Position numbers and translations under genes: made by a program
The notes under the pieces: model-generated
Databases searched by the model: none
What the model saw: the letters and a program-made list of their open reading frames with translations, nothing else
Told to the model about the DNA's origin: nothing
Assembly (NCBI GenBank): GCA_900547465.1
Contig: URHJ01000005.1
Span: 1 to 52,530 of the forward strand
DNA: 52,530 nt
DNA from: an uncultured Mycoplasmatota bacterium
Lineage (GTDB): Bacteria; Bacillota_I; Bacilli_A; RF39; UBA660
Direction of reading: 5' to 3'
Shown here: in pieces, positions 3,440 through 45,560 of the stretch
Numbering within the stretch: the stretch's first letter is position 1
Layout: each line of letters begins with the position of its first letter

Positions 3440-3513
3440 ACTACATACTCCATTTGTAAAAAAGAGCAATATTAACCCATACCTCAAGATTAATACTGCC
3501 CATCTCTAAATTA

Positions 3514-3642: not shown

Positions 3643-3945
3643 TTAAATTATGTAATGGTAAGTAAACTCGTCACCTCCCGCATTTATGTGATTAGATACA
3701 ACTATTACATCATCATCCGCACCATAAAAATCTAACACCTTTTGAATCCTTTCATTTTTAGGCAAACTTGTATCAGAATCTCTAGTAAGTACAGCAGGTA
3801 TTCCTAATTGAGTTAAACGATCATATATATATTTAGCCGCTTTTAATGTAAAATCTTTCTCATACACATTTCCGCTAATAGCTCCCGGATCGCTACCTCC
3901 ATGTCCAGCATCAACAACAACACCTTTTAATGCTCTCTCATTCAT
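3643..3945 (-). pseudogene. Truncated N-acetylmuramoyl-L-alanine amidase (Amidase_3 family), N-terminal half only
   Basis: MNERALKGVVVDAGHGGSDPGA...EKDFTL...LTRDSD...VVSNHINAGG matches the first half of the Amidase_3/CwlD-type fold, including the first Zn ligands. The frame then ends after unrelated residues (DEFTYHYII), and the C-terminal half with the catalytic Glu is missing. A full-length paralog is present at 20456-21133. ATG 3945 has AGAGGTGA upstream. Confidence 0.55.
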
Positions 3946-3995
3946 CTTTTTCACCTCTAATATAGACTATGATAATAAAAATAAAATGTGAAAAA

Positions 3996-6014: not shown

Positions 6015-6893
6015 ATGAAAAAAATAAAAAAGAATAAGTTAAGTATTTATCATAAAATTGGAATTATCTACGTTATAATTCTATTGACAATAAGTACAGC
6101 TTATTCTTTTTTAAGTGAAAATTTATCATTAGAAGCAACGACAAGCATAAAAAGCTCAGATAAAAATTACAAAGTAGAAGTAACACCAATTTCTAAAACT
6201 GATTATAACGGGATCTACTATTATGAGTACAATGTAATAATAACTTATCTAGGAACAGAAACAACAACCGGATGGACTACATATATAGACGTGCCATATA
6301 CAACACAAATAACAGGATGTTACAATGCAAATAGCTGTGATATTGAAGGACAAGTACTAACAGTAACAAATGCAGATTATAACGCTAGTTTATCGCCAAG
6401 TAATACCTCAGCATCGTTCAACATAAAATTTGAAACTGATGAAGCAGATTATTCGTTAAATATTTTAGATGTACAATTTAAAACAGGAAATACGACTACT
6501 GATCCAGATCCAACTCCTAACCCTAATCCGGATAAACCAACAGCAGTAGATTATGTAAAAATATCATATGTTATGCAGAATGACTGGGGAAATCGTCAAT
6601 GGCATGTTCTAACCATAGAAAATGTATCAGACTCAGTCACAATAACATCTTGGACTGCAACATTAAAAGTATCTTCAAGTGATACAATGACTAATGCAAA
6701 TATATGGGGCGGTACATATAGTTACGATGAAGCCAGTGGAATAATAACTGTATCAGGTCCAAGTTGGTCACCTTCTCTTGCCCCTTCTTCCAAAGCAGAG
6801 ATAAACTTTCAAATTGCTCCACCAGAGCCAGAATTAATTTCATTTGAAGGTATAACATCAACTGGAGAAAAAATAACTACAACAATAAACTAG
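6015..6893 (+). CDS. Secreted protein with two CBM2-like beta-sandwich modules joined by a Pro/Thr/Asn/Asp linker
   Basis: N-terminal signal/anchor IGIIYVIILLTISTAYSFLSENL and linker TTTDPDPTPNPNPDKPT. The C-terminal module YVMQNDWGNRQWHVLTIENVSD...SWTATLKV...IWGGTYSY...VSGPSWSPSLAPSSKAEINFQI aligns by eye with family-2 carbohydrate-binding modules. The N-terminal module is a more divergent copy. Confidence 0.6.
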   Translation: MKKIKKNKLSIYHKIGIIYVIILLTISTAYSFLSENLSLEATTSIKSSDKNYKVEVTPISKTDYNGIYYYEYNVIITYLGTETTTGWTTYIDVPYTTQITGCYNANSCDIEGQVLTVTNADYNASLSPSNTSASFNIKFETDEADYSLNILDVQFKTGNTTTDPDPTPNPNPDKPTAVDYVKISYVMQNDWGNRQWHVLTIENVSDSVTITSWTATLKVSSSDTMTNANIWGGTYSYDEASGIITVSGPSWSPSLAPSSKAEINFQIAPPEPELISFEGITSTGEKITTTIN

Positions 6894-6904
6894 AGGAGGT
6901 TAAA

Positions 6905-8092
6905 ATGAGAAACTTTAATAAAAAAATAATTTTAATTTATATAATATTAATTCTCTACATTTTGTTTACAACATTATTTGGATATAAAAATTTTAACGCA
7001 GTCACAACAAATATAATTAATCCATTATTCTATATAATAACATTTATAATAAGTATTATCTTATCAGATGCTGACAGTAAACAAAGAATTAAAGGAAAAA
7101 ACAATAAATATCAAACCGTTTTCATAGTAACAATTTCTTATTTAATATTATATACTCTTTCTGGATTATTTTTAGGATATGTAAAAAGTATTTATTCCCA
7201 TACTATTCTAAGCATACTAAAAAATATATGGATTTATATTACACCAATTGTTTTTATAGAACTAACAAGAAACATTTTAATTAGGAATTCCGGAGATAAA
7301 AAAGTACCATTTATAGTAATTTCCATACTTTTTACCATAATTGAAATAAATTTATTTAATATAATTAACATAACAGATAAAAAGGAAATTTTTAAATCAA
7401 TATTTGAAATAATTATTCCAGCAATAACAAAAAACCTATGCTTAACATATATATCAAAAACATCAGGTTACATAACAAATTTAATATATTTACTTCCCCA
7501 AAAACTTACAACTATTATACTTCCTATATTTCCAGATTTAGACTGGTACTTTACAGGTTTATTTGGAATATTAGTACCAATCTTTGCATTTATCCCAATC
7601 AAATACATTGATAACAAAATAGATATAACAAACACAAGGCAAAGAATAAAAAAAGAGAAACCAATAAACTTCATCATTATAACAATACCGTTAATCATCT
7701 TTGCATTATTTGTTGCAGGTTTTTTCAGATACAAACCAACCGCAATAATGTCAAATAGTATGCACCCAATCTATGATAGAGGAGACGTCGTAATTGTAGA
7801 AAAATCAACTAAAACAGTATTAAACAACTTAAAAAAGTATGATATAATAGAATATATGCTAGACAAAACTATTGTTGCCCATAGAATTATTTACATTGAA
7901 AAACACAATGATAATACAAGATTATATATAACAAAAGGTGACAATAACAATATGGCTGATAAAGAAAAAGTTACTAATGATCAAATAAAAGGAAAAGTAA
8001 TATTTAGAATACCAAAAATAGGTTACCCAAGTGTTTGGTTAAATGAATTTTTAAATAAAAAGGAAGATGTTGCAGTAGAGACAGGAAAATAA
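6905..8092 (+). CDS. SipW-type (archaeal/ER-type, S26B) signal peptidase I fused to a roughly 260-aa polytopic N-terminal membrane domain
   Basis: C-terminal 125 aa carry AIMSNSMHPIYDRGDVVIV (nucleophile Ser), IAHRII (His of the Ser-His dyad) and TKGDNNNMAD (GDNN box). The N-terminal 260 aa contain about 8 hydrophobic segments. GAGGAGG SD. Confidence 0.75.
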   Translation: MRNFNKKIILIYIILILYILFTTLFGYKNFNAVTTNIINPLFYIITFIISIILSDADSKQRIKGKNNKYQTVFIVTISYLILYTLSGLFLGYVKSIYSHTILSILKNIWIYITPIVFIELTRNILIRNSGDKKVPFIVISILFTIIEINLFNIINITDKKEIFKSIFEIIIPAITKNLCLTYISKTSGYITNLIYLLPQKLTTIILPIFPDLDWYFTGLFGILVPIFAFIPIKYIDNKIDITNTRQRIKKEKPINFIIITIPLIIFALFVAGFFRYKPTAIMSNSMHPIYDRGDVVIVEKSTKTVLNNLKKYDIIEYMLDKTIVAHRIIYIEKHNDNTRLYITKGDNNNMADKEKVTNDQIKGKVIFRIPKIGYPSVWLNEFLNKKEDVAVETGK

Positions 8093-8104
8093 GGAAGTGT
8101 AATT

Positions 8105-9169
8105 ATGAACTCACCAAATAGAAAAAGACCTACATTAAAAATGTGGGTTAGAGTAAGTTTGACAATTATTATATCACTTGGCATTTTTATTCCAATATTA
8201 GAAATTTACCTAAATTCAATTGAAAAAAAACAATATAACAATAAAAAGATATATAGTTACCAAATAAATCAAAGTGCAGATTACAAAGTTCAATTATTTG
8301 ATAACACATTTACTGACGAACAAGAAATGGCATCAAATAAAATATACATTGCTGATTTAACAAAAAATATAAACTTAAATTTAGGATATACATACTCTGG
8401 AACAAAAAAAGCCCCACTAAAATATACATACGAAATAACTGGAAAATTATACGGTGAGAACCAAGATAGTCAAAATGGAAAAACAAATACAGTCTGGGAA
8501 AAGAAATATCAATTATTAGAAAAAACAGAAAAAGAGGTAAAAAACACTTCTGGATTTGCTGTTACAGAAAATTTAGATATAGACTATCAAAAATATCAAA
8601 ATGAAGTAGCAAACTTCAAAAAGCGATTTGGAATGACTCTAAACACAAAATTAAAGGTTATAATGAATATAAAGGTTAATGGCAAGTATGAAAAAAATAA
8701 CATAGATAGAAATGACAACATTATTTTAGAAATACCATTAGGTACTCAAGCATTCTCAATTACAGAAGATTATGAAAAGACTAAAAGTAAAGATTATTAT
8801 GAGAAAAAACAAAATATAAAAATAGTAAATTCGGCATATACGAAATTATGTATATCCATATCATTAATATCAATTTTATTATTTATATTATCATTTAAAG
8901 CATTATTCAATATAAAACCAAAAAGTTCGTATACAAAAAAAATTAATAAAATACTTAAAAATTATGGGCAAATAATTGTCGAAGTAGAAAACCCAATTAA
9001 AGAAAAAAGCTTTAACGTAGTGAAAGTAAAAGACTTTAATGAAATGCTTGATTTAGAAGAAGAACTAAAATTACCAATCATCTTTTATGAAGATCTGTAT
9101 AACTACAAGGCAGTATTCACAATCACAAAAGAATCAACAATATACAAATGCATAATAAAAAACCAGTAA
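8105..9169 (+). CDS. Two-TM membrane protein with a beta-rich extracytoplasmic domain and a small C-terminal cytoplasmic domain (resembles DUF5305-type SipW-neighbour proteins; unverified)
   Basis: TM1 is VRVSLTIIISLGIFIPILEIY and TM2 is LCISISLISILLFILSFKALF. It is the last gene of the operon, with a 12-nt gap after the peptidase gene. Confidence 0.55.
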   Translation: MNSPNRKRPTLKMWVRVSLTIIISLGIFIPILEIYLNSIEKKQYNNKKIYSYQINQSADYKVQLFDNTFTDEQEMASNKIYIADLTKNINLNLGYTYSGTKKAPLKYTYEITGKLYGENQDSQNGKTNTVWEKKYQLLEKTEKEVKNTSGFAVTENLDIDYQKYQNEVANFKKRFGMTLNTKLKVIMNIKVNGKYEKNNIDRNDNIILEIPLGTQAFSITEDYEKTKSKDYYEKKQNIKIVNSAYTKLCISISLISILLFILSFKALFNIKPKSSYTKKINKILKNYGQIIVEVENPIKEKSFNVVKVKDFNEMLDLEEELKLPIIFYEDLYNYKAVFTITKESTIYKCIIKNQ

Positions 9170-9189: not shown

Positions 9190-10476
9190 TTAATCTTTAC
9201 TTTTAGTTAATGTAACTTTAGTACTATGTTCCTTACCATCTCTAATATAAGTTATATCAATAGTATCACCAGGTTTATTCTTATAAAGTTCATATCTTAA
9301 ATAAGCCGTATTTTCTACTTTTTCTCCATTTAGTTTAGTAATCACATCACCTGATTTCAAATCAGATTTACTAGCACCACTACCATTTGATATTTCTACA
9401 ACAACAACTCCTGACTTAATACTAGAATCAACTTGAATACGATTACGATATAATAAAGATTCATCTGTAACATTAGCCATACTAATACCTAACATAGGCC
9501 ACTCAATACTTTTTCCTTGTTCAAGTTCTTCAACATGTGCCATAGCAATTTCGATAGGAATAGCAAATCCCATACCTTCTATTTCATCTTCAACAAGTTT
9601 CATAGAATTAACACCAATAACCTCACCATTAATATTAACTAAAGGTCCACCACTATTACCAGGATTTATAGCAGCATCAATTTGTAAAACCTTCATAACC
9701 CAATCATTACTACTAGAATTAGAAACATTAACTGAAACCATTCTATCTTTACCAGAAAGTATTCCAGATGTTACAGTACCACGATATTCATATCCCATAG
9801 GAGAACCAACAGTAAACACAGTATCACCTATATTCATATCGTCAGAGTTACCAATCGTAGCAACTTGCAAAACCTTACTCTTATCTATTGTCATAACAGC
9901 AATATCTAAATACTCATCTCCACCAACTATTTTAGCTTCAACTTCTTCATCATTTGATAAAACTAAAACAACTTTATCACAACCAGAAACAACATGTTGA
10001 TTAGTCATAATATATCCATACTTGTCATCAGTTTTATAAACAAAACCAGTACCAGTTGAATACTCTTCTTCCCCCTTATAAGACTCAACCATAACAACAG
10101 AATCATATACTTTACTAATAGATGTACCTAAGCTAGATTTTTCATAAACTTTAGTCTTTTTAGTATTATCAATGATATTACTCGTACCACTTGCATAATT
10201 CAAAATAGGTGTCCACTTCAAAAGAGCAATCATAACAATACCACCCATAACAAATGAGAACATTATCAAAAAACATAATCTAGAATTATTATTTTTTAAT
10301 GTTTTTTTACTTTTAGAAGTATTTACTGTACTCTTTTTCTTTTCCTCTTTTTTCTCTTTTTCTTTAAAAACAGTAGCACTATCATCTACTTTATGTATCA
10401 CTACATCATCTTTTTTTGCATTTCCAGATGAAACATGTTCACTTAATTTTTCTACTTTTTTATCTTTTTCATTCAT
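9190..10476 (-). CDS. htrA: HtrA/DegP-family membrane-anchored serine protease with C-terminal PDZ domain
   Basis: Catalytic triad contexts TNQHVV, YLDIAVM and GNSGGPLVN. N-terminal Lys/Glu-rich tail plus TM LCFLIMFSFVMGGIVMIALL. PDZ-like region SGDVITKLNGEKV. Confidence 0.9.
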   Translation of the reverse strand: MNEKDKKVEKLSEHVSSGNAKKDDVVIHKVDDSATVFKEKEKKEEKKKSTVNTSKSKKTLKNNNSRLCFLIMFSFVMGGIVMIALLKWTPILNYASGTSNIIDNTKKTKVYEKSSLGTSISKVYDSVVMVESYKGEEEYSTGTGFVYKTDDKYGYIMTNQHVVSGCDKVVLVLSNDEEVEAKIVGGDEYLDIAVMTIDKSKVLQVATIGNSDDMNIGDTVFTVGSPMGYEYRGTVTSGILSGKDRMVSVNVSNSSSNDWVMKVLQIDAAINPGNSGGPLVNINGEVIGVNSMKLVEDEIEGMGFAIPIEIAMAHVEELEQGKSIEWPMLGISMANVTDESLLYRNRIQVDSSIKSGVVVVEISNGSGASKSDLKSGDVITKLNGEKVENTAYLRYELYKNKPGDTIDITYIRDGKEHSTKVTLTKSKD

Positions 10477-11422
10477 TTTCTACAACACTCCTTTCAATAT
10501 TAGCTAAATCTTTCCAGTTAGATGGAAATCCCATTTTATTTAAAACATCATCAACTCTAATAGTTTTCAAATTATAATCTAACGTTCTAAAAGCATTCTC
10601 AATTTCAATTGTCATACTCTTAAATTTGTCAGCATCTAATAACTGCTTCATAATAATAATCAAAGCAAAAGGATCATTCTTTCCAGAAACATATTCACCA
10701 TCAACTTTTTCAATTCCTAAAACCTTATGATAAATAGTATCCCCTATTACCTTTTGTGTTTTATAATCATACACAATTTCTTCATGAGCACATAAATTTC
10801 TGTAGTTAGCAAGAATAGGTAAATATGTGCTAAAGGTTTCAACATCAACTCCATAAATATTACTAATAGCCAGCTGATCATCCTGCTTCAAGATAGAATA
10901 CATCTCACTAACAATTCCAAATGACAAAACTTTTACTAAAATCCATAAAGGAATATAACCATAATTACATGCATAATGTTGAGTAGCACTATGTTGATCA
11001 CCATTAACCCTGATCTGTCTTTTCATCTTTTTTAAAAGATCATTGACTTGTCTTTGTTTCTCCGGTCGTCTAGTAAAATTTTTAGCTTTCAAGTAATCTC
11101 TTTCTTTATAACCATATTTTTTAGACAATTGATAAGATGTGATAGATTTAAAGTTATTTTCAATTATAAGTAAATTCTTAAAACAAATATTTCTAAAAGT
11201 ACGATCAAATAAAAATAAACTATACAATTCTTCAAATGTTGCTCCATCTTTATAGACTCTTTCATTAGAAGACTTCATAAGCATATGTCTATATCCATTC
11301 AAAAAGAAATAATTTTCACGAAGTAATATACTTTTAGCATAATCTTCATTATGAATAATTAAATGCTTATTCTTTAATATTTCTACTTGTTCATCAAGAG
11401 TTTTGAATTGTTTCTCTATCAT
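10469..11422 (-). CDS. Abi_2 family (AbiD/AbiF-like) abortive-infection-type protein with HEPN Rx4H motif
   Basis: N-terminus FKTLDEQVEILKNKHLII.NEDYAKSILLRENYFFLNGYRHML is typical of Abi_2. YRNLCAHEE supplies the HEPN R-x4-H motif. ATG 11422 has AGGTGA 5 nt upstream, and the track start at 11431 is a GTG. The stop overlaps the htrA start by 8 nt (ATGAATGA). Confidence 0.75.
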   Translation of the reverse strand: MIEKQFKTLDEQVEILKNKHLIIHNEDYAKSILLRENYFFLNGYRHMLMKSSNERVYKDGATFEELYSLFLFDRTFRNICFKNLLIIENNFKSITSYQLSKKYGYKERDYLKAKNFTRRPEKQRQVNDLLKKMKRQIRVNGDQHSATQHYACNYGYIPLWILVKVLSFGIVSEMYSILKQDDQLAISNIYGVDVETFSTYLPILANYRNLCAHEEIVYDYKTQKVIGDTIYHKVLGIEKVDGEYVSGKNDPFALIIIMKQLLDADKFKSMTIEIENAFRTLDYNLKTIRVDDVLNKMGFPSNWKDLANIERSVVENE

Positions 11423-11440
11423 AATTCTCACCTACTATAA

Positions 11441-12492: not shown

Positions 12493-12536
12493 TATAAAAA
12501 AAACAATACTATTCATACTAATATCAGGTGAAATAT

Positions 12537-13592
12537 ATGATATATAGATATGAAATAAAGAACAATGGAGCAGAAGATATACTTTATTTGTATGTCACTA
12601 TGACATATGAATTTTCTAAAGAATTAGAAGATAATAAAACAGAAAAAGTTAAATCAACCTGTAAAAAATTTATGAAAAATAATAGTATCGATTTCAAAGG
12701 AGACAAAATCTATCTAGTTATTGATGGAATAATAGTAAAGACACTTAATATTAATGAAGAGAATGATACAAAAGAAAATGAAAAATCAACAATTGATTTA
12801 TCAAACGATAATTTCTATGTCAATCTACACTATCCAAATAATAATACAGTAAAAATGACATTGAAAAATTATCTTTTAGGTGTTTTAGCAACTAATACAA
12901 TGGAAAACTTAGAATTAACTACCACAAAAGCACTTTGCTTACTCTATAGAACTTATGCATATAAACAAATGAAAGAAAAAAATTATATTGAAGCAATAAA
13001 TCCATATCAAATTTATAAACCTTTTTCCTACTACAAAGTATTTTGGAATGAAAAATACAACGATTATCATAATAAGTTTGTAAAAGCTATAGAAGATACT
13101 GATAAAGAATTTGTAACATATAATAATAAGTATATAAACCCATACATACACATCAGTAATAATGGATATACAGATAATAATAAAAATATCCCATATTTAG
13201 AAAAAAGACCAAGTCTCTGGGATTATGCATCTCCTTATTATTTAGAAATCAAAGACTTTACAAATCAAGAAATGAAAAATATATTCAATATTGACAAAGA
13301 TAATTTAAAAAACATAAATATATTAAAAGTAAGTGAATCAAACTATATCAGAAAAATAAAAATAGGAAACAATGAGTATACAGGAGAAATGCTTAAACAA
13401 AAACTAAATCTAAAGTCAACAGATATAACAATTATAATAAATCCAACCTACATTAGATTCATAACTAAAGGTTGGGGAAATAACTTAGGTATTAGTCAAT
13501 TTGGAGCAAATGAAATAGCTAAAGCAGGTTGTTCTTATACAAGCATTTTGAAATATTATTTTCCAAAAATATCAATAAAAAAATACCTATAA
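12537..13592 (+). CDS. SpoIID/LytB-domain protein (divergent)
   Basis: LKNYLLGVLATNTMENLELTTTKALCLLYRTYA aligns with the SpoIID core (Y..GVvaaEMP....ealKAqa.aaRTy). C-terminal GWGNNLGISQFGANEIAKAGCSYTSILKYYFP matches GHGvGmSQyGA..mA..G..y..IL..YYp. ATG 12537 has AGGTGA 5 nt upstream, and the track start at 12528 is a GTG. Confidence 0.75.
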   Translation: MIYRYEIKNNGAEDILYLYVTMTYEFSKELEDNKTEKVKSTCKKFMKNNSIDFKGDKIYLVIDGIIVKTLNINEENDTKENEKSTIDLSNDNFYVNLHYPNNNTVKMTLKNYLLGVLATNTMENLELTTTKALCLLYRTYAYKQMKEKNYIEAINPYQIYKPFSYYKVFWNEKYNDYHNKFVKAIEDTDKEFVTYNNKYINPYIHISNNGYTDNNKNIPYLEKRPSLWDYASPYYLEIKDFTNQEMKNIFNIDKDNLKNINILKVSESNYIRKIKIGNNEYTGEMLKQKLNLKSTDITIIINPTYIRFITKGWGNNLGISQFGANEIAKAGCSYTSILKYYFPKISIKKYL

Positions 13593-13618
13593 AAATAGAG
13601 CCAATTAAAGCTCTATTT
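13593..13618. terminator. Bidirectional hairpin between the SpoIID-like gene (+) and the T7SS-like operon (-)
   Basis: AAATAGAGC-caattaaa-GCTCTATTT flanked by A and T runs. It overlaps the last codons of the 13613 ORF. Confidence 0.6.
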
Positions 13619-13837
13619 ATTTTTTTCAATCATAACTTTTAAAGCAGAATCAGAATCTTGATATAATTTAACACTTGTTTCTAGAAACTTAGAATAATTA
13701 TCTAAACTATCACAAAATTCAGTAACCTGATCAATATTAGGATGATACTTATCAATGATTTTTCTTATGATCTGAGATGATTTAGCTAAAGATTTATATG
13801 CTTGTTCCATTTCTTCATATGTCATTTCTCCAATCAT
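13613..13837 (-). CDS. Small (74 aa) helical-hairpin protein, candidate T7SS-associated substrate or chaperone
   Basis: Predicted helix-turn (YHPNID)-helix. C-terminal LYQDSD fits a YxxxD/E motif. ATGA overlap with the upstream 61-aa ORF, with AGAGGT SD. Confidence 0.55.
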   Translation of the reverse strand: MIGEMTYEEMEQAYKSLAKSSQIIRKIIDKYHPNIDQVTEFCDSLDNYSKFLETSVKLYQDSDSALKVMIEKNK

Positions 13838-14019
13838 TTTTCTACCTCTTTCTTATCCTTCTTTTCCAAATAATTAGCTCCTCTAATAACAACATTTTTA
13901 AACTCGTTGATTTCCTCAATAGAACTTAAATTATCATTATTAGTCCAACTATTTTTTAATTTTTCAAGTAAGGAAAAGATATTATTTACCTCTGTAACAT
14001 ATTTTTCATAATCATTCAT
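13834..14019 (-). CDS. Small (61 aa) helical-hairpin protein, candidate T7SS-associated substrate or chaperone
   Basis: Helix, then turn NSWTNND, then helix. A strong GGAGG SD overlaps the esaB stop. It is not a canonical WXG100 protein, being too short and lacking W-x-G. Confidence 0.55.
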   Translation of the reverse strand: MNDYEKYVTEVNNIFSLLEKLKNSWTNNDNLSSIEEINEFKNVVIRGANYLEKKDKKEVEK

Positions 14020-14029
14020 AAAATACCTC

Positions 14030-14287
14030 CTAAAGCAATATCAATCGTGAACCATTTTTTAAATCAGAATCAATTATTCTCATATTAACATCATAAATTT
14101 GTCCTGTTTCTTTACTATACAGATTAACTTCATCAGAAGTAACATAATCATGATCAGTCAAGTCAATAATTCCTTTTTCAATTAAATTCTTAATAGTACC
14201 AATATGTTTAGAAACAGGTACAAAAACATCATATGATTTTTCTATACTAGGGATGGAAATCTCTAATAATATTTTGTTATTTTCCAC
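14030..14287 (-). CDS. esaB: EsaB/YukD-family ubiquitin-like T7SS protein
   Basis: 85 aa. LEISIPSIEKSYDVFVPVSKHIGTIKNLI...DSDLKNGSRLILL matches the YukD pattern. GTG start with AGGTGA 4 nt upstream. Lies immediately downstream of essC. Confidence 0.8.
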   Translation of the reverse strand: MENNKILLEISIPSIEKSYDVFVPVSKHIGTIKNLIEKGIIDLTDHDYVTSDEVNLYSKETGQIYDVNMRIIDSDLKNGSRLILL

Positions 14288-14295
14288 AAAATCAC

Positions 14296-17200
14296 CTACT
14301 TAACAACTAATTTTACCAAACTTGCTTTTCCCTTATGAACAACATATCCAAAGTTTTCAGGAATCTCTTCACGTAGTTCTCTAGGAGTAGTCAATAATTT
14401 AATAGCATATTGATCAGTAATTCCATTACCAAGCCATAATCCCTCAGATGTATCAACAGCATTTTTATACCAATCATCATAAGCAAAAGATTTTAATCCA
14501 TCAGCAGAATCTACAATTATAAAATTATCAACTTCAAGTTCTCTAGAATGCATCAAAGCATCACAGAAATCTGTTTTATTATCTGAACTAATTCTAGAAA
14601 AGAAAGTAGAAATTCCAAATATAACATAAGTATTTCTCTTATTATTTTTTAATGCATTATTATCAAAATTGTTTTTGTCATATATTTCTTTCTGTTCTTT
14701 ATATCTTTTGCCAACAACTTGAGCAATAGAATCAAAATTACTATTTATATAGTTTTCTGACACATCAGTAGAATTAAACATCTTAGCTGCATCAATCACC
14801 ACAATTTTTTGATAAGGAATCTTTTTTAATAACTTTACAAAGGTTCTAAAGAAGTTTCTTTCTGCGTAATAATCCAAAGACGAAATAATTGATACAGGGT
14901 TATTTTTAAAGTCCATAGTAGCAATCTCTAAATTATTTTTATTAATACCAACAGGTACAGATGAAAGCTTACCTATAGCTTCTTCAACAGATGAAATAGT
15001 AACAACTTCAGGTAAAACTGGAACTTTTGGAGCACTGCCACTACATATATTTTTAAGTCTACTACAAATGACCTTTATATATTCAGACATCTGTGCTTCA
15101 AAATAGGGATAAGCTGTTTGAAATTCATAAACACCATCTTTTTCAATAAGTCCACGTCCAACTGCTCTAGATGGATATTTACGATTTCTAGATTGAATAA
15201 CATCAGTATAATCAGAATAATCATTAAGTTGTAAGACAAGATTTGATTTAAAGTTCTGTCTTACACGATAACGTATTGCATTAGTACTACTAGTAGATAA
15301 AATAAAGACAACTCCGTACTTTGCACCTTCTCTAGTATACTGTAAAATTAAATCTTCATAATCATCATACGTATCAATAAAAGCCTCATAATTATTAATA
15401 ACAATAGTAACTAAAGGTATCTTTTTATTACTATGTCCTAAATAAAATAAATAAGAACCATTATAATCAGCAAACAATTTTTTTCTTTCTTCTATTATTT
15501 CGTCAATCATTTTAAATAAATTTTCAATTTTTTCGGAATCATTAGAAGTTAACACACCACCAACTTGGGGTGCTTTTTCAAACATCTTTAAAGTCTCAGC
15601 TCCAAAGTCCAAAATATAGTAATTTATTTCATCCGGATTATAATTTGTAATAGATGAATATATAATACTAGAAAGCAATAATTCTTTACCACTACCAGTA
15701 GAACCATAAATTATAGTATTACCATCAACAGTAAGATTTAAAGTTAAAATATCTTGTCTCTGATTATCAGGATCATCATATTCACCAATAACTAAATTCA
15801 CTTGATTTGGTTGACTAACAAAATTGTATTTTCTTTTTAAATCTTCTACATATATAACATCTGGAATTCTATCTAACCATAATTTTGGAATTGCAATACC
15901 TTCATCTTTTGCAGTTTTAATAATATATTTAATAATATTAGGTAATTCTTCTCCTTGTGATTGCACCTGAACAAAATTATTAGAAGAGTCAAAGGACTTA
16001 ATAACACTACCAACATTATCAATAAAATCTACTGCAGTATCTACTTTTTTCTTTCTTTTTTCAGTTGGATAGTATTGCGCACCAGTCCAAGCAGATTGTC
16101 CTAAAGCAAATAATTCATTGTAACCAACCTGTAAATAAAATCTACCCGGATTTTTTAAAGCAGCTGCATCAGGTCTTTTAATCATATCCATACTATCAGA
16201 TCTATCTTGAACTTTTAGACAAATCTTAAACTTAGAGTTAGACCAAATCTGATCATCAACAACTCCACTTGGTTTTTGTGTAGCTAAAATCAAATGAACA
16301 CCCAAGCTACGTCCAATACGAGCCGTTGAAATAAGTTGATCCATAAACTCAGGTTGTTGATCTTTAAGCTCAGCAAACTCATCAGAAATAATAAACAAAT
16401 GTGGAATTGGTTCATTTACTTTTCCTTCACGATAAAGTCTTTGATATTTATAGATATCTATAGTGCTTTCATTCAAATTATCACGAGCAATATTAAATTT
16501 TCTTTGTCTATTTTTCAATTCACTTTGAATAGAAGCTAAAGCCCTACTCATTTCAATAGTATCAAGGTTTGTAATAGAACCAGCTAAATGAGGTAGTTTA
16601 ACACCAGTATTTTTATTTTCAAATGCACCAGCAAGTCCTCCACCTTTATAATCTATCAATACAAATGATACTTCGTAAGGACTAAAATTAACAGCCATTG
16701 AAAGTATATATGAAATAATAAGTTCAGATTTTCCAGAACCAGTCATACCAGCTACTAAACCATGAGGTCCATAAAATTTTTCATGCAAGTCAAGTTTAAA
16801 TTGATCACCATTTTTATCAAGACCAATTGGAACTTGTAAAGTCTTCGTAGGATCATTATTTTTCCATCTATTTAAAATATTTAATTGTTCAATCATACCT
16901 ATATTATACATTTCCAAGAAAGTAACTGTAGAAGGTATATTTTTTTCTTCTTGTTCCATTTCTATAGGAATATTAGCAAGCATTTTAGCACAAGAATAAA
17001 TATTAAGATTAGGTAAAACATCAGCTACAAACTCTTTCTGTTTATTAGAAACAAGTTCGTTTTCAAAAACACCAGATTTTTGATCACCAATACTAATAAA
17101 TGTACTACATTCATTAGGCAAATTAGTAATTCTTGGAGAAACAATAATTAAACTAAAACCTAAATTAACTTCTTGTGCAGCAACATCTTTAATAATATCT

Positions 17201-18900
17201 AAATCTCTAACCATCTTATAATCATCAGTTAAAATAACATAATAAGGTTCATAACTAAGGTAAGATATATCACTACGGTTAGCTTCACCTATTTCAGCAC
17301 GATGTCTAAACTCCTTTTCTAAATATAAAGAAATTTCCTTCATATCATCTATATTAGTAGCATAAAACCTAATAGATTTATCATTATTAAAGCAATGAGG
17401 TAAAACCTTCAAATAATCCCACTTAGAATCATTTTTATCATTAGTAAGAACTACTATTTTTAAATCTTGATAACTATGAAAAGCCATCATCTGTAATAAT
17501 AAACCTTCTATAAAACTTTGTTTTTGTCTACCTTCACCTATAATAGCTGTAATATAATTTTTTACGAATGACAAAGAAATAGGTACATCAACGAGCATAC
17601 GTGATTCTGAAGCAACTTTATAAACAAATTCTCTTAAGTCATCTTCCTCTAACATAAATCTTTCTTCAGGAAATCTTATTTCACCCTCTAATTCGCAAGA
17701 ACCAATTCCCAAACGTAAATCTAAAAAGTCATCTTGCTTAATTTCTCTTTCCCATAAATTTCTTTTTTTATTCATAACAATATTTTCAACTACATCTAAA
17801 GGTAAATAATTATCAATTAATATTTGTCTTTGAATTTTCATTTGAGCAATTATATCTTGATGTTTTTCTTCAACATACTTACGATACTTATCTTGACGTG
17901 TTTTTTCTCTTTTTAATTGTTGTTTTTTTTGATAATTATTAGAAAGCAACGGCCATAATATAGTTGATAAAAGCATAGCAAGAGCCATAATAAGTGTAGG
18001 CATCGCACTATTAATATTCTGTGTTCCATTCATAACACCATTAATTGAAGAATAACCAAACATAACTGAACTCATGGACATAGTAAGCATAGGACCAACT
18101 GTATAAATCATTGGCATTTCATTTGGAGTTTCTTTAGCTGGAGGATCTTCAACTATAATTTGAACAGGTTCTATCTTAGATTTAAAACGAGGTGAACGAA
18201 AGAAATAATCATTTTCATGAAAAAATTCTATGTTTTCATCTTCTACAGTTTCTGAAGCAATTTGTTTTTGAACAATAGGGTCCATTACTTCAAAAGTATT
18301 ATTATCATATTGAATTAAATTACTAATATTATTAATAACTATAAAATTACCCATAATTATTATTTTAAGACCAAGAATAAAAATAATATCCCCATATTCT
18401 AGCTTTTTACTAACAGTAGCATAATTATTAACATAAGTACCATATTTACTAGTCAAATCTTGTACAAACCAAATTCCATCTTTATATATAAGTTTAGCAT
18501 GTTGTTTAGAAAGTAATGGATATTTATATTGAATATGACAATTACTATCATTACCAATTACAAATTCACCATTACGTAAAACCTTAAGTTTAATAAGATC
18601 AGAATCAAAAGATGGAGAACAATATAAAATAACAAACTCATTATCCGTACTAATTTTCAAAAAGTATAAATTGTAGTCTTTTAAATAAGCAGATTCAATT
18701 TCTTCATTACCAGACATAATTTTAGTTTCAAAATCACTTTTAATTTTCCACATACCATCTTCTGCTTCTACATTTATCAAATTTCTGACATTCCCCAAAT
18801 GATCATCATCAGTAATCCAATAATTACCAGATACCTTACTAGGCAAAGAAAAATTATAAATCTTAGTTCTTTTAATAAGTCTAATAATCACAAAAATCAC
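14296..18900 (-). CDS. essC: EssC/YukB-type FtsK/SpoIIIE-family T7SSb ATPase (two N-terminal FHA domains, two TM segments, three ATPase-like domains)
   Basis: FHA-like region IGNDSNCHIQYKYPLLSKQHAKLIYKDGIWFVQDLTSKYGTYVN. TMs MPMIYTVGPMLTMSMSSVMFGY and PTLIMALAMLLSTILWPLL. D1 has Walker A GMTGSGKSE and Walker B FIISDEFAEL. D2 has GSTGSGKE. D3 has no P-loop. GTG start at 18900 or 18891; the latter has GGGGTGA upstream. Confidence 0.9.
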   Translation of the reverse strand: MIFVIIRLIKRTKIYNFSLPSKVSGNYWITDDDHLGNVRNLINVEAEDGMWKIKSDFETKIMSGNEEIESAYLKDYNLYFLKISTDNEFVILYCSPSFDSDLIKLKVLRNGEFVIGNDSNCHIQYKYPLLSKQHAKLIYKDGIWFVQDLTSKYGTYVNNYATVSKKLEYGDIIFILGLKIIIMGNFIVINNISNLIQYDNNTFEVMDPIVQKQIASETVEDENIEFFHENDYFFRSPRFKSKIEPVQIIVEDPPAKETPNEMPMIYTVGPMLTMSMSSVMFGYSSINGVMNGTQNINSAMPTLIMALAMLLSTILWPLLSNNYQKKQQLKREKTRQDKYRKYVEEKHQDIIAQMKIQRQILIDNYLPLDVVENIVMNKKRNLWEREIKQDDFLDLRLGIGSCELEGEIRFPEERFMLEEDDLREFVYKVASESRMLVDVPISLSFVKNYITAIIGEGRQKQSFIEGLLLQMMAFHSYQDLKIVVLTNDKNDSKWDYLKVLPHCFNNDKSIRFYATNIDDMKEISLYLEKEFRHRAEIGEANRSDISYLSYEPYYVILTDDYKMVRDLDIIKDVAAQEVNLGFSLIIVSPRITNLPNECSTFISIGDQKSGVFENELVSNKQKEFVADVLPNLNIYSCAKMLANIPIEMEQEEKNIPSTVTFLEMYNIGMIEQLNILNRWKNNDPTKTLQVPIGLDKNGDQFKLDLHEKFYGPHGLVAGMTGSGKSELIISYILSMAVNFSPYEVSFVLIDYKGGGLAGAFENKNTGVKLPHLAGSITNLDTIEMSRALASIQSELKNRQRKFNIARDNLNESTIDIYKYQRLYREGKVNEPIPHLFIISDEFAELKDQQPEFMDQLISTARIGRSLGVHLILATQKPSGVVDDQIWSNSKFKICLKVQDRSDSMDMIKRPDAAALKNPGRFYLQVGYNELFALGQSAWTGAQYYPTEKRKKKVDTAVDFIDNVGSVIKSFDSSNNFVQVQSQGEELPNIIKYIIKTAKDEGIAIPKLWLDRIPDVIYVEDLKRKYNFVSQPNQVNLVIGEYDDPDNQRQDILTLNLTVDGNTIIYGSTGSGKELLLSSIIYSSITNYNPDEINYYILDFGAETLKMFEKAPQVGGVLTSNDSEKIENLFKMIDEIIEERKKLFADYNGSYLFYLGHSNKKIPLVTIVINNYEAFIDTYDDYEDLILQYTREGAKYGVVFILSTSSTNAIRYRVRQNFKSNLVLQLNDYSDYTDVIQSRNRKYPSRAVGRGLIEKDGVYEFQTAYPYFEAQMSEYIKVICSRLKNICSGSAPKVPVLPEVVTISSVEEAIGKLSSVPVGINKNNLEIATMDFKNNPVSIISSLDYYAERNFFRTFVKLLKKIPYQKIVVIDAAKMFNSTDVSENYINSNFDSIAQVVGKRYKEQKEIYDKNNFDNNALKNNKRNTYVIFGISTFFSRISSDNKTDFCDALMHSRELEVDNFIIVDSADGLKSFAYDDWYKNAVDTSEGLWLGNGITDQYAIKLLTTPRELREEIPENFGYVVHKGKASLVKLVVK

Positions 18901-18987
18901 CCCAGCTTACACTACAAACACTTTCTATTCTAAGATTAATTATAACCTTTTTTCAATGCATTTACAATATATATTTGGAATAATTCA

Positions 18988-20424
18988 TTACTTAGCAACA
19001 GAATTTTTTTTCAAAGAAGTATACTTTTGATAATTAGAAAAACAAGTATTAAAATTATTAATAGAATCATATGAAGAATATAATCCATCAACAATAGATG
19101 AAGAATACTTATAATTAAGATTAATTAAAGAACTTTTTAAAATATTTTTAGTTTTTATGCTATAAATATCTAAATTCTGCTGTAAAACAGTATCCATTAT
19201 GACATTATAAACATTTTCAGCATCTTCATTAAATGCATAATAATAATCATCATTAGTTATTGTAGAATCATTATTATTTCTATGTCTATTATAACTAGTA
19301 GCCATAATCCAAGTTTGAGCAAATTTTGCCTTAGCTACCATAAGTTCATCAGAACACAAAGAACCATCTTTTTCTAAAATACATTGACCTAATGCATTAT
19401 ACTTAATATTATAGTTATCATATATTCCTTTGATTGAATTTAACGAAAAGTCATATCTCGGATAGAAATCAAAAAAAGAATAGGTTTTCCCGATTTCGGA
19501 ATCATCTAAAAAAGGTTTTACTACATTCCTTTCCACACGACAAGAAGATGTATTATTCTTATGTAAATCTATTTCATCAATACATTTTAAAATAGAATTA
19601 TATACCAATTCTTTAAATTCTGCATTGCCATACTTTTTCTTAAAAATATTAAAAATTTTATTATCATATTCCACTTTAGACAATAAATAATCAGAACCTT
19701 TGATTAAATTACCATTATAGTCAAAATATTGAAATGGATTATCGTCTAAATATTTTTTAACAGCTTTTTCAATTCCATCAGAAAAAGACTTGGAAACAAC
19801 TGCTGAAAAAGATAAATGATCATCGCGTACTATATTATCTGCATACCCAATCCAAGAATTTATTTTTGATACTATCAAAGATGGTTCTTCACATCTAGAA
19901 ATAATATCAGGATGTTCATTTTCAAGCTCTTTTAATATTTCGATATTTCTATTTAAGTTCTTTGATGAAGAATAAATAACCATATTATCCTTTCTACCTA
20001 ATGATTCATTTCCAGCTATTTTAAAATAAAAAGGAATATCAACTTGTTTATATTTTTCATATAAATAAGAAGAAAATTTATGAATATCCTCATTTGCAAG
20101 ACATAAATACAATCTACAATCAATATCTTTCGATCTATATCCAACCTTACCAACTTCTTGAGAACGAACACTATACCATCCATTTTGACTAATCAAAGGA
20201 TGAACCCTCAAATTCAATCCAGTTTTTTTATAATCTTTATCAACTTTATCAATAAAATTTACAAAAGCATCAGTATCTATTTCTCCATTTTGATTGCATA
20301 AATCAACATTAATAATATTATATATTTGTTTATATGGTTCTATAAAATAACTAAATCTTTTATTAACATACAAATCTAAAACTTTAAAAATAACATTTTT
20401 ATCTACAATTGAACGTATATCCAT
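18988..20424 (-). CDS. Hypothetical soluble 478-aa protein, first gene upstream of essC
   Basis: Strong SD (GGTAGGAGG) and no TM segment. The segment CRLYLCL...IPFYFKIAGNESLGRKDNMVIY is faintly reminiscent of HopA1 / LanKC-N-terminal-like proteins, but I cannot verify this. Confidence 0.6.
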   Translation of the reverse strand: MDIRSIVDKNVIFKVLDLYVNKRFSYFIEPYKQIYNIINVDLCNQNGEIDTDAFVNFIDKVDKDYKKTGLNLRVHPLISQNGWYSVRSQEVGKVGYRSKDIDCRLYLCLANEDIHKFSSYLYEKYKQVDIPFYFKIAGNESLGRKDNMVIYSSSKNLNRNIEILKELENEHPDIISRCEEPSLIVSKINSWIGYADNIVRDDHLSFSAVVSKSFSDGIEKAVKKYLDDNPFQYFDYNGNLIKGSDYLLSKVEYDNKIFNIFKKKYGNAEFKELVYNSILKCIDEIDLHKNNTSSCRVERNVVKPFLDDSEIGKTYSFFDFYPRYDFSLNSIKGIYDNYNIKYNALGQCILEKDGSLCSDELMVAKAKFAQTWIMATSYNRHRNNNDSTITNDDYYYAFNEDAENVYNVIMDTVLQQNLDIYSIKTKNILKSSLINLNYKYSSSIVDGLYSSYDSINNFNTCFSNYQKYTSLKKNSVAK

Positions 20425-20455: not shown

Positions 20456-21133
20456 TCATATTTTTTTTATATAATTAATTATCCCCTTAGAGATTGCGAT
20501 AGAAAACTTTTCTTGATAGTCAGATTTCTGTAACAAATATCTATCATCTGCATTAGATAAGAAACCACATTCCATCAAAACACCAACTGTATTAGTATGA
20601 TTATATAAAAATAAATTAGTTTTCTTTACTTCACGAGTTTTAATACCAGCATCTGTAAGTGATTCTGTTAAATTTAAAGCTAATTTATAGTTAAGTGGAT
20701 TGATTGTCGAATATAAAATTTCAGAGCCACCATAATAATAATCAGAATACCAATTCAAGTGTACTGATAAATATATGTCAGACTTTTTCGATTCTATATA
20801 ATTAATTCTTCTCTTTAAATCACTTCTTTTTTTTAGATAATCAGAATCTTTTGAAAAATCTACATCATCTTCTCTTAGTAAATAAACTGTTGCGCCAGCT
20901 TTTTCAAGTTGTTTCTTTAAAGACTTAGAAATTTCTAAATTTAAATCTTTTTCTAATAATTTCCCATATCTAGTACCCGGATCACGACCCCCATGACCAG
21001 GATCAATTGTAATAATAACCCCTTTCAATAACTTAGGCATTTTTTCTGCTTTTACATCATATTCATAAGAAATTAAGAAAAGTGAAATAAAAAATATCAA
21101 TAATAAAAGAATTTTATAATAAACCTTAATCAT
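20456..21133 (-). CDS. cwlD: Germination-specific N-acetylmuramoyl-L-alanine amidase CwlD
   Basis: Signal/anchor LLLLIFFISLFLISY, then ITIDPGHGGRDPG, LEKDLNLE, LSVHLNW and ECGFLSN. It has the conserved position downstream of rplM-rpsI, as in Bacillus subtilis. Confidence 0.85.
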   Translation of the reverse strand: MIKVYYKILLLLIFFISLFLISYEYDVKAEKMPKLLKGVIITIDPGHGGRDPGTRYGKLLEKDLNLEISKSLKKQLEKAGATVYLLREDDVDFSKDSDYLKKRSDLKRRINYIESKKSDIYLSVHLNWYSDYYYGGSEILYSTINPLNYKLALNLTESLTDAGIKTREVKKTNLFLYNHTNTVGVLMECGFLSNADDRYLLQKSDYQEKFSIAISKGIINYIKKI

Positions 21134-22550: not shown

Positions 22551-23294
22551 CTATTTTTTTATATAGTTTTTTCCCTCAATTCCACCAAATCTATTACGTT
22601 TTGTCGCAATTATCATGGATCTTAGTTGTTGCAATTGCTCTACATTTTCAACATTACTAACAATATCATCAAAACTAGGAAGATCATCAGTTTTATTCAT
22701 ACATTGATTAATAATTTTAGATGCTTCTCCATATTTTTTTAAATTTCTTTCTTGAGATATTTTTTCTACCTTTTTCAAATTATCTTCATCTTGCTTAAAT
22801 CTATAAATATTATAATTTTGAATATTTATACATTGAAAATTAATAATAGCTCCACCAATTTCTAACATCATTAATAAAGGTGCAAAAGGTACTTCAAAAA
22901 AAGATAACATACCAAAACAAGAAATTAAAAAAGCATTTTTTACCAAACCTCGTTTATGAACATTCTTATTCCAATTTAAATAATAAATAAAACCTAACGG
23001 ACGATTTATATCCATATGATAATTTATATTTTTTTCACAATTAAATTCTTTATGTACTAACATCTTATGCCTACGGTATTTTTCATTTATCATTTTTTTA
23101 TTGGCACTTGAATGAACCTTTTTAATTTCTTTCCTTCGCTTATAATCAAGAAATTTATCATAATAGTTCAAAAAATTAGGACAAACAAATTTTATCGTTT
23201 TATATTTTAAACCCTCAACCTTAAAAACTACTTTTTGAAATTTTTCCGCACCAAGTAACTTACATCTATTTATTTTATTTTTGTAATCATCCAT
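22551..23294 (-). CDS. Hypothetical membrane protein (basic N-terminus, two central TM segments, coiled C-terminus)
   Basis: 247-aa ORF with GGGGGA SD. The hydrophobic core is AFLISCFGMLSFFEVPFAPLLMMLEIGGAIINF. The AIINFQCINIQNYNIYRF segment weakly resembles the C-terminal motif of diaponeurosporenoate acyltransferase-like membrane proteins (unverified). Confidence 0.55.
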   Translation of the reverse strand: MDDYKNKINRCKLLGAEKFQKVVFKVEGLKYKTIKFVCPNFLNYYDKFLDYKRRKEIKKVHSSANKKMINEKYRRHKMLVHKEFNCEKNINYHMDINRPLGFIYYLNWNKNVHKRGLVKNAFLISCFGMLSFFEVPFAPLLMMLEIGGAIINFQCINIQNYNIYRFKQDEDNLKKVEKISQERNLKKYGEASKIINQCMNKTDDLPSFDDIVSNVENVEQLQQLRSMIIATKRNRFGGIEGKNYIKK

Positions 23295-23314
23295 ACCAAT
23301 TCCCCCAATATAGA

Positions 23315-23620
23315 TTAAATAGATTTATTTTTATCACTTAATACTTTCACAACAGGACCATCCTGTTTCAAATCTAATTCCAGCTCCTTGTTATCTAATT
23401 TAACAATAAGTTCTTCTAATTGCTCATCAGACATTGATTCAATATAATTTTGAGCAAGTGTTATATTAACAGTATTATTAACCAATGACCCTGCTGTTGT
23501 CGCAGTAGAAGTCAAAGTTGTCATAGTATCACCAAAACCATCAGGCTCATCACCTAACAAAGTTACAGCACTATATGTAGTAGTCAACATTTCACTTACA
23601 CTTAAGTTAATTATTCCCAT
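23315..23620 (-). CDS. Hypothetical small acidic protein
   Basis: 101-aa ORF with a strong AGGAGGAA SD. Thr-rich N-terminal half, with an acidic helical C-terminal half. Confidence 0.5.
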   Translation of the reverse strand: MGIINLSVSEMLTTTYSAVTLLGDEPDGFGDTMTTLTSTATTAGSLVNNTVNITLAQNYIESMSDEQLEELIVKLDNKELELDLKQDGPVVKVLSDKNKSI

Positions 23621-45478: not shown

Positions 45479-45560
45479 TTTTTCTCCTTCCATATACTAC
45501 CACGCATTATAATTATATAACGATAATAAAAATTTTTAAAGGTAAAATTTTGGCAAGTTT

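Follow-up and report, generated by a model that had tools for sequence, protein, structure and literature searches.

A putative, reduced type VII secretion cassette of four genes in uncultured gut Bacilli

[quoted passage not shown] The core machinery of T7SSb is taken to include EssB, EsaA and EssA. The first-pass annotation of the window had described a full-length EssC and a YukD-like protein with none of these partners nearby, and had suggested that the type VIIb-like locus may be a minimal or functionally diverged export system. Here, we propose that the locus holds a reduced form of type VII secretion cassette, particular to its lineage, whose four genes are co-transcribed, a reading to which we assign a probability of about 0.62. 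All five ORFs that the annotation had placed at 13613-20424 were found at those positions, each on the minus strand (Table 1).

Table 1. Positions of the features at the locus, numbered from the first nucleotide of the window.
Feature	Position	Strand	Remarks
spoIID-like gene	12528-13592		convergent to the cassette; flanks the locus
Hairpin ATAGAGC-N8-GCTCTAT	13593-13618	.	T-runs on both strands
Second WXG100-like gene	13613-13837	-	74 aa
Shortened WXG100-like gene	13834-14019	-	61 aa
YukD/EsaB-type ubiquitin-like gene	14030-14287	-	85 aa
essC ORF	14296-18900	-	1534 aa; probable start GTG at 18891 (1531 aa)
Promoter-like site	18927-18967	-	TTGTAA-17-TATAAT; second overlapping match
HopA1/LxmY-like gene	18988-20424	-	478 aa; adjoins the cassette, not a conserved part of it
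cwlD	20456-21133		flanks the locus

The four cassette genes are bracketed by a promoter-like site and a putative terminator. The promoter-like site is located in the 87-bp gap separating the 478-aa gene and essC, and is a consensus match only; since such matches occur no more often in this AT-rich region than chance would give (58 versus 61 expected), a promoter of its own for essC is suggestive only. The hairpin between the 74-aa gene and the spoIID-like gene is likely a two-way terminator, and no terminator separates the 478-aa gene from essC. In the sequence ATGA, the start codon of the 74-aa gene and the stop codon of the 61-aa gene overlap, an arrangement that points to translational coupling.

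Judged from its sequence, EssC is a genuine and intact T7SS ATPase, in agreement with the earlier description of a full-length protein bearing a forkhead-associated (FHA) domain. It scored 1055.7 bits against the NCBIfam model TIGR03928 (T7_EssCb_Firm; cut-off 778.4), and Pfam detected FtsK_SpoIIIE and FHA domains, the latter at residues 114-173 (E 1.2e-12). Its N-terminal FHA region is accompanied by two transmembrane segments (about residues 265-320), by a DUF and by three P-loop domains. Its true start is probably the GTG listed in Table 1, which is preceded by a GGGGTG ribosome-binding site and agrees with the gene calls on metagenome contigs. D1 keeps both of its Walker motifs, A (GMTGSGKS) and B (DE), in 24 of 24 relatives, and by these motifs is catalytically complete. 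D2 has the Walker A motif GSTGSGKE, and the D2 Walker B and the D3 motifs are degenerate. D3 is the most variable domain (30-37% identity among close relatives, compared to 81-84% for D1), as expected of a substrate-recognition module. The closest solved relative is B. subtilis YukB (phmmer against the PDB, 399 bits over residues 300-973). None of the first 299 residues, the FHA region among them, was aligned by phmmer with those of YukB. Conservation of the FHA region at about 60% in close relatives points to a binding partner; this could be an unseen protein and not the ubiquitin-like one. Of its phosphothreonine pocket, Ser-x-x-His remains and Arg and Asn have been lost, an incomplete state which recalls the EssC of T7SSb, whose FHA domains are without a phosphothreonine-binding site (Garrett et al., PMC11217815).

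The 85-aa protein encoded next to essC is, by its predicted fold, a ubiquitin-like relative of YukD/EsaB, as had been claimed. An AlphaFold2 model computed from an alignment of database homologues has a mean pLDDT of 89.6 and a beta-beta-alpha-beta-beta topology (beta-grasp), and Foldseek matched this model to ubiquitin-like proteins; among these were the corresponding domains of EccD in ESX-5 (7npt_D8, rank 2) and of EccD1 (4kv2). The window's own protein has no significant Pfam match, and four of the 19 members of its family match YukD (PF08817; best E 1.8e-5). The C-terminus ends in SRLILL, without Gly-Gly. The ubiquitin-like gene adjoins EssC in 23 of the related loci. Since its family forms 158 clusters at 90% identity in metagenomes, the variant appears to be common in uncultured gut bacteria.

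The two short proteins had been described as hairpin proteins in a window with no canonical WXG100 gene. Profile comparisons indicate that both are shortened, divergent relatives of WXG100 proteins, which means that the substrate gene would be degenerate and not missing. When an HMM built from six bona fide WXG100 proteins at related loci was run over the 438 six-frame ORFs of the window, its sole matches were the 74-aa protein (E 7.9e-5) and the 61-aa protein (E 1e-4). In hhalign, the 61-aa family aligned with true WXG100 proteins across the hairpin turn (probability 81%, E 1.2e-5). The 74-aa protein matched Pfam WXG100 (E 1.4e-3) and NCBIfam ESAT6_2 (E 2e-5), each below the cut-off, and a homologue at 65% identity carries the JGI name 'uncharacterized protein YukE'. 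The word canonical stands only in so far as both proteins fall under the curated thresholds of Pfam and NCBIfam and neither has the W-x-G motif; in the 61-aa protein the W is kept and the G is lost (SWTNND). For the three small proteins, neither single sequences nor profiles found a useful match in the PDB; the one exception was a weak match of the 61-aa profile to 4lws, a T. curvata EsxA/EsxB entry (E 0.09).

The same four genes, in the same order and orientation, were found in 11 further species-level loci (L005-L009, L011, L012, L015 and L035-L037), which makes 12 cassette loci with the window; the 61-aa gene is found in all 12. The hosts are uncultured Bacilli of the gut with low GC content, and their records carry the labels Bacilli, Erysipelotrichaceae or 'Tenericutes' MAGs. 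To our knowledge, the lineage has no cultured representative. All four genes are under purifying selection, with dN/dS values of 0.07-0.10 for essC, 0.10-0.18 for the 85-aa gene, 0.19-0.27 for the 61-aa gene and 0.10-0.21 for the 74-aa gene; this overall range of 0.07-0.27 is comparable with that of the neighbouring htrA and abi genes. The shortening of the WXG100 genes to 61 and 74 aa with loss of W-x-G, together with the degenerate D2 Walker B and D3 motifs, might be taken to mean that the cassette is a decaying, non-functional remnant of a larger T7SS. We disfavour this explanation as extremely improbable: the low dN/dS of all four genes stands against it, as do the intact essC frame in all close relatives (1518-1544 aa), the invariant D1 motifs and the 21 invariant positions across 45 sequences of the ubiquitin-like family. 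In addition, the degenerate D2 and D3 motifs are no sign of decay in this species because they are common to all 24 aligned EssC relatives, kinase-linked systems included.

More distant relatives of EssC occur in other settings. Four of them (L010, L016, L017 and L020) lie in small islands beside housekeeping genes such as ftsY/ffh, rpoB, argS and prfA; all four have the ubiquitin-like gene, and most also have WXG100-type proteins. L010 additionally carries DUF4176 proteins and large toxin-like genes, a gene content which suggests export of T7SS-type cargo by this EssC clade. At L021-L025 (36-37% identity), EssC is accompanied by a kinase with TPR repeats, a vWA-FHA protein and an Ig-like lipoprotein.

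The absence of EssB-like and EsaA-like genes from the window, as first described, held for the ORFs that were scanned. No Pfam match to EssB/YukC, EsaA/YueB or EssA was obtained from ORFs of the locus and its flanks or from those at 1-12.5 kb, 22.5-25.2 kb and 41-52.5 kb; on same-species metagenome contigs, the stretch matching about 25-30.7 kb holds ribosomal-protein, RNA polymerase and related housekeeping genes. Nor were EssB, EsaA or EssA seen among the neighbours examined at some 25 related EssC loci, with about 10 kb read to either side; the neighbours scanned at the four islands had none either. The large polytopic neighbours are P-type ATPases only. Two candidates for an EsaA-like protein were rejected: the 884-aa polytopic gene at L016 encodes a P-type ATPase, and the 998-aa gene upstream of essC at L015 reads, on inspection of its sequence, as a secreted cysteine-protease-like surface protein.

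The missing genes might instead lie in a second locus, in which case this would be an ordinary T7SSb whose essB, esaA, essA and full-length esxA work with the present EssC. The conserved FHA region suggests a partner, YukB is the nearest solved structure to the EssC body, and the related MAG RUG10929 carries two EssC loci, so that a genome of this group can hold more than one T7SS locus. However, both RUG10929 loci are without EssB, EsaA and EssA among the neighbours scanned, and the 11 further cassette loci have no EssB-, EsaA- or EssA-like protein among their Pfam-annotated or examined neighbours within about 10 kb. Also against a second locus, the known T7SSb loci compared keep essB, esaA, essA and esxA contiguous, the N-terminal part of EssC is not aligned with that of YukB by phmmer, and genomes with non-b subtypes have been reported without further T7SSa or T7SSb orthologues (Garrett et al., PMC11217815). 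We consider this explanation unlikely.

The 478-aa gene had been counted as part of the operon, a view that was not upheld once its co-occurrence with EssC was surveyed. The gene is missing from all 11 more distant cassette loci and, at the cassette, is confined to this species and its nearest relatives, and the gene directly upstream of essC varies between loci. In the close relative L034, a homologue with 64% identity occupies the same position, next to an EssC whose N-terminus is 91% identical. Only 13 homologues of the protein were found, and the remote ones occur in non-T7SS contexts, adjoining histidine-phosphatase genes. The protein matches Pfam HopA1 (PF17914) marginally (23.8 bits, cut-off 22.7). 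Its structure model matches LxmY of the lexapeptide dehydratase (9dk1-3; for 9dk3_B, E 1.2e-4) and HopA1 (4rsw, E 5.5e-4; also 4rsx) in Foldseek; because the confidence of this model is low (mean pLDDT 59.7), these fold matches serve only to support the Pfam match. It is conceivable that the HopA1-like protein is a cargo or effector of EssC, so that all five genes form one functional unit: HopA1 is a secreted effector family, the gene lies directly upstream on the same strand with no intervening terminator, its non-synonymous divergence is about six times that of the EssC N-terminus beside it (dN 0.234 versus 0.040), and a C-terminal helical extension with a YxxxD/E-like motif is common to three close homologues. 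We regard this as improbable, given the distribution and contexts described above and the promoter-like site of essC; moreover, the protein has no recognisable LXG or WXG domain, and the YxxxD/E match is a short motif in three sequences. Comparison of the loci thus places the 478-aa gene outside the conserved T7SS cassette.

A similar comparison bears on the surroundings of the cassette, which had been described as a sporulation and cell-wall neighbourhood. The cwlD and spoIID-like genes do flank the locus and a Spo0A gene is present in the window, features that would fit a system serving sporulation or the remodelling of the spore cell wall. The setting is not a conserved one, however: spoIID is not adjacent at 5 of the 12 cassette loci, cwlD is directly upstream at only three, and the more distant EssC relatives adjoin unrelated housekeeping genes. 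In addition, cwlD after rplM-rpsI is ordinary Bacillota synteny, as in B. subtilis. A role in sporulation is therefore very doubtful, and the neighbourhood looks incidental.

We compared the four-gene cassette with the known T7SS subtypes, designated a to j, most of which share only the ATPase, a ubiquitin-like protein and a WXG100 protein (Garrett et al. 2024, PMC11217815). The reading as type VII-like export with no EssB, EsaA or EssA nearby holds and recurs in the 11 further loci, but 'T7SSb-like' is too narrow because those three parts are common to most subtypes. The resemblance to T7SSb lies in the EssC body, which is nearest YukB and passes the NCBIfam EssC equivalog model, in the separate YukD/EsaB-like gene adjoining essC and in the incomplete FHA pocket. 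Unlike T7SSb, the cassette has no EssB/YukC, EsaA/YueB or EssA/YueC in the scanned window or near the related loci, it has two different short WXG100-like genes downstream of essC instead of one esxA upstream, and its FHA region is not aligned with that of YukB by phmmer.

Of the nearly universal T7SS core, the cassette also has a TsxC ATPase and a TsxB ubiquitin-like protein without Gly-Gly, together with putative, divergent TsxA proteins of WXG100 type. Among subtypes c to j (PMC11217815), T7SSg is the simplest, and T7SSe and T7SSj are the closest relatives seen here. As in T7SSe and T7SSg, there is a non-identical pair of small, putatively helical proteins, and the ATPase carries an FHA domain, as in T7SSb, d, e, f, i and j. 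In contrast, the T7SSg ATPase has no FHA domain, and the T7SSg marks DUF5050 and Tad components were absent from the scanned window ORFs and the annotated neighbours. The Ser/Thr kinase, PPM phosphatase, FHA protein and Ig-like envelope protein of T7SSe and T7SSj were likewise absent from the scanned window ORFs and the close relatives; partners of this type are present only beside the distant relatives L021-L025, whose gene set recalls T7SSj and T7SSe. The small proteins of the cassette are 61-78 aa long and without W-x-G, compared to about 100 aa in subtypes c to j. Unlike in those subtypes, a fourth machinery component was not found next to the cassette: neither a TsgL beta-propeller nor a kinase, a phosphatase, a separate FHA protein, an Ig-like protein or an EspG-like chaperone was seen beside it. 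The hosts are uncultured lineages represented by MAGs and were probably missed by the RefSeq-based survey of Garrett et al.

Our literature search found no published description of the four-gene arrangement. A minimal secretion system of 'WXG100 plus FtsK/SpoIIIE ATPase' was reportedly proposed by Pallen in 2002, and that idea reportedly set out the least that systems of different phyla have in common and did not describe a system shown to work. The recognisable parts here are likewise an ATPase and WXG100-type proteins, plus a ubiquitin-like protein; unlike in that idea, a single clade here carries the reduced set as a cassette that is conserved and under selection. Taken together, these comparisons favour reading the cassette as a T7SS variant that is new to the literature and reduced still further, which extends the known range of T7SS and is not a new kind of machine.

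How such a cassette might work can be outlined from better-known systems. On the model of the B. subtilis YukB-YukC-YukD structure (PMC12637312), EssC would oligomerise to form both the membrane channel and the motor, and the ubiquitin-like protein would be gripped between the FHA region and the DUF of EssC and would stabilise that conformation. Such a grip would explain why the FHA region is kept without an EssB partner. From the gene arrangement and by analogy with other T7SS, we infer that the 61-aa and 74-aa proteins may form a heterodimeric helical bundle, and coupled translation of their genes would fit equal amounts of each. A C-terminal tail of the bundle may dock on the variable D3 domain, and the bundle would be exported; it might serve other cargo as a co-factor as well. 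EssC, the ubiquitin-like protein and the WXG100 pair might even be a complete, self-sufficient export machine that needs no other dedicated membrane part, a tentative proposal to which we give rather less than even odds.

If self-sufficient, the cassette would be smaller than any other natural T7SS and could serve as a minimal model of an EssC hexamer that itself forms the channel. It would take its place as an eleventh gene arrangement beside the a to j catalogue, drawn from MAG lineages that RefSeq surveys have missed, and it would offer a four-gene target for reconstitution. If the cassette works, this would suggest that the ATPase and its ubiquitin-like clamp are the real engine of the T7SS.

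Five minus-strand genes, flanked by cwlD on one side and a convergent spoIID-like gene on the other, have the placement proposed by the first-pass annotation (see table). The window has a G+C content of ~27% and contains rplM-rpsI, cwlD, spoIID and spo0A, which together indicate that its source is a low-GC Bacillota lineage retaining sporulation genes. The identical gene order was found on contigs of many gut metagenomes; the 478-aa protein is indexed in 116 blocks of the metagenome collection, in which the contigs reach 569 kb.

Genes of the EssC locus and its surroundings, with dN/dS computed on closely related pairs
Feature	Position	Strand	dN/dS	Remarks
GajB	406-1728	-		UvrD-like helicase, 295 bits
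GajA	1709-3487	-		PADLOC GajA 332 bits; OLD-type TOPRIM domain
htrA and abi (neighbour genes)			0.04-0.16	
74-aa protein	13613-13837	-	0.10-0.21	
61-aa protein	13834-14019	-	0.19-0.27	
85-aa protein (ubiquitin-like gene)	14030-14287	-	0.10-0.18	
EssC	14296-18900	-	0.07-0.10	probable true start GTG at 18891, downstream of GGGGTG ribosome-binding site
478-aa protein	18988-20424	-		

The EssC scan of species-representative genomes returned 25 loci, and three more were reached via the ubiquitin-like protein. The cassette of essC, the ubiquitin-like gene and the two small genes was present in 12 species-level loci (the window and, in related genomes, loci L005-L009, L011, L012, L015 and L035-L037), with the same order in 12 of 12. 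It usually lies 3' of rplM-rpsI and 5' of an abi-htrA pair, and spoIID adjoins it in 7/12 loci, while the gene directly 5' of essC varies by locus (cwlD, a ZIP transporter, a nucleoside phosphorylase-like protein, a lipoprotein or a 998-aa secreted protease-like protein). The window abi gene (10469-11431, minus strand) is of the AbiD/Abi_2 abortive-infection type (PADLOC AbiD E 7e-59) and shares an 8-nt overlap with htrA (9190-10476); the two genes keep their synteny in all cassette loci except L006 (11 of 12), an unusual pattern for a defence gene.

EssC, which has FHA and FtsK/SpoIIIE domains and two hydrophobic segments around residues 265-320, passes the NCBIfam EssC equivalog model (1055.7 bits, cut-off 778.4). 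Its closest solved relative is B. subtilis YukB (399 bits, residues 300-973), followed by Thermomonospora EccC (246 bits). The N-terminal 299 residues, including the FHA region, gave no phmmer alignment to YukB; T7SS subtypes differ in their FHA regions (Garrett et al., PMC11217815). FHA2 (the Pfam FHA domain, residues 114-173) retains Ser-x-x-His, while Gly-Asn replaces Gly-Arg and Tyr replaces the Asn of S-x-N-G, which indicates that the phosphothreonine pocket is incomplete. When the window protein was aligned with 23 relatives, the first P-loop ATPase domain (D1) had an invariant Walker A (GMTGSGKS) and Walker B (...DEFAELK), D2 had the Walker A GSTGSGKE and a degenerate Walker B, and D3 was degenerate. 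Identity to eight close relatives was 81-84% in D1 but only 30-37% in D3, a divergence that would fit a substrate-recognition module.

The 85-aa protein alone gave no significant family match in Pfam, NCBIfam and PDB sequence searches. BLAST groups it with the small gene adjoining EssC in 22 related loci, and 4 of 19 small EssC-adjacent proteins match Pfam YukD (best E 1.8e-5). A database search gave 158 homologue clusters of 84-97 aa; among the 120 clusters listed, identity was 55-99% and the named members were labelled 'Bacilli bacterium' or 'bacterium' MAGs. From an alignment of 45 homologues, AlphaFold2 produced a confident beta-grasp model (pLDDT 89.6), with which Foldseek retrieved ubiquitin-like proteins, including the EccD ubiquitin-like domains of ESX-5 and ESX-1. 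The C-terminal Gly-Gly is absent. The indirect but consistent evidence from sequence and model suggests a YukD/EsaB-type ubiquitin-like protein.

Two divergent WXG100 relatives were found in a window said to have no canonical WXG100 gene: with an HMM built from six true WXG100 proteins, the 61- and 74-aa ORFs were the only matches among 438 six-frame window ORFs. Relatives of the 61-aa protein have 62-67 aa, and BLAST connects this family to bona fide WXG100 proteins of ~100 aa in the related locus L010. Profile-profile comparison with full-length WXG100 proteins gave a probability of 81% (E 1.2e-5) spanning the hairpin turn. The earlier wording holds insofar as SWTNND stands opposite W-x-G in the 61-aa protein and the matches of the 74-aa protein are sub-threshold (WXG100, E 1.4e-3; ESAT6_2, E 2e-5). 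A 74-aa homologue at 65% identity is named YukE by JGI, and the start of the 74-aa gene overlaps the stop of the 61-aa gene.

The reported absence of EssB and EsaA was borne out in the window ORFs scanned (the locus and its flanks, 1-12.5, 22.5-25.2 and 41-52.5 kb), where EssB/YukC, EsaA/YueB and EssA had no match; on same-species contigs, the annotation for the equivalent of ~25-30.7 kb lists genes for ribosomal proteins, RNA polymerase and related housekeeping functions. Neighbours examined at related loci likewise gave no match to the three proteins. More distant EssC relatives (37-49% identity) also form small islands adjoining housekeeping genes: ftsY and ffh come next in L010 and rpoB in L017, and the L020 locus lies between argS and prfA. 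L010 also has two WXG100 genes of full length, a WXG100-LysM fusion, two DUF4176 proteins and a pair of large toxin-like genes; this gene content suggests that the EssC clade deals with cargo typical of T7SS. This cargo island (L010 1658-9975) lies 5' of essC; the toxin-like proteins (1230 and 590 aa) have similar N-termini and no Pfam match, and both DUF4176 genes are 3' of toxin-like genes, one immediately after the 590-aa gene. MAG RUG10929 (Erysipelotrichaceae label) carries two distinct EssC loci, L014 and L016 (42% and 40% identity to the window EssC), each with a separate ubiquitin-like gene. In L014 the order is ubiquitin-like gene, essC and then a gene for a 205-aa protein, whose L013 homologue has two Pfam WXG100 matches, which suggests a family of double-WXG100 proteins. 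The most distant relatives (Hungatella/Clostridiaceae, 36-37% identity) are accompanied by a TPR-containing Ser/Thr kinase, a vWA-FHA protein and an Ig-like lipoprotein, reminiscent of T7SSj/e of Garrett et al.

The 478-aa gene had been assigned to the same operon. Its position 5' of essC stands, and a 64%-identical homologue keeps the cwlD-478-essC position in a close relative, but the gene is absent from all 11 more distant cassette loci. Thirteen homologues were found; those at ~31% identity occur in unrelated contexts adjoining histidine-phosphatase genes. Since essC also has its own promoter-like site directly upstream, we regard the 478-aa gene as a variable insertion. Two remote HopA1-like homologues (L030 6504-7724 and L031 4031-5209) lie near His_Phos_1 genes in two different contexts, the latter after rplM-rpsI and before a CYTH gene. 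The protein matches Pfam HopA1 marginally, and its model, which is of low confidence, matches HopA1 itself, LxmY (a HopA1-like subunit in lexapeptide dehydratase) and class III lanthipeptide synthetases in their lyase domains. At most, it is a possible cargo protein.

Elsewhere in the window, a Gabija anti-phage system occupies 406-3487 (minus strand), and an AAA_14/DUF4143 ATPase matching candidate defence family PDC-S01 (43328-44599, minus strand; 370 bits) adjoins spo0A (44702-45493). Between truA and rplM (22551-23620, minus strand) lie genes for two proteins, one of 247 aa with a hydrophobic hairpin at its centre and one of 101 aa, neither of which had a Pfam or NCBIfam match. The 247-aa protein, a membrane protein specific to the clade and encoded 2-4 kb from the cassette, recurs at the equivalent spot in L006, L009, L012 and L015 (31-38% identity), with no T7SS link seen. 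A CBM_2/Ig-like protein, a signal-peptidase S26-domain protein and a DUF5305 protein are encoded at 6015-9169 (plus strand), and part of this group is again present 3' of htrA in L037. The 103-aa ORF at 3643-3954 (minus strand) covers the first half only of an Amidase_3 domain and probably represents an amidase gene that has been truncated.

In the B. subtilis cryo-EM structure, the YukB FHA domains and DUF hold YukD 'like a ball in a hand' (PMC12637312), which implies a role for the FHA region independent of EssB. By analogy, the 85-aa protein would be clamped between the EssC FHA region and DUF. The 61- and 74-aa proteins would most likely pair as a heterodimeric helical bundle, which the fast-evolving D3 would recognise and the D1-driven motor would export.

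Garrett, Higginson and Palmer (2024) divided T7SS into subtypes a-j, most of which have in common only an ATPase, a ubiquitin-like protein and a WXG100 protein (PMC11217815). The simplest, T7SSg, comprises A1, A2, B, C and a beta-propeller, with an ATPase without FHA domains (PMC11217815). The cassette, in contrast, has FHA domains and truncated WXG100-like genes, and no fifth component was found beside it. It differs from all ten of the arrangements described, and we found no description of its arrangement in the literature. The cassette is a variant within T7SS and not a new type of system.
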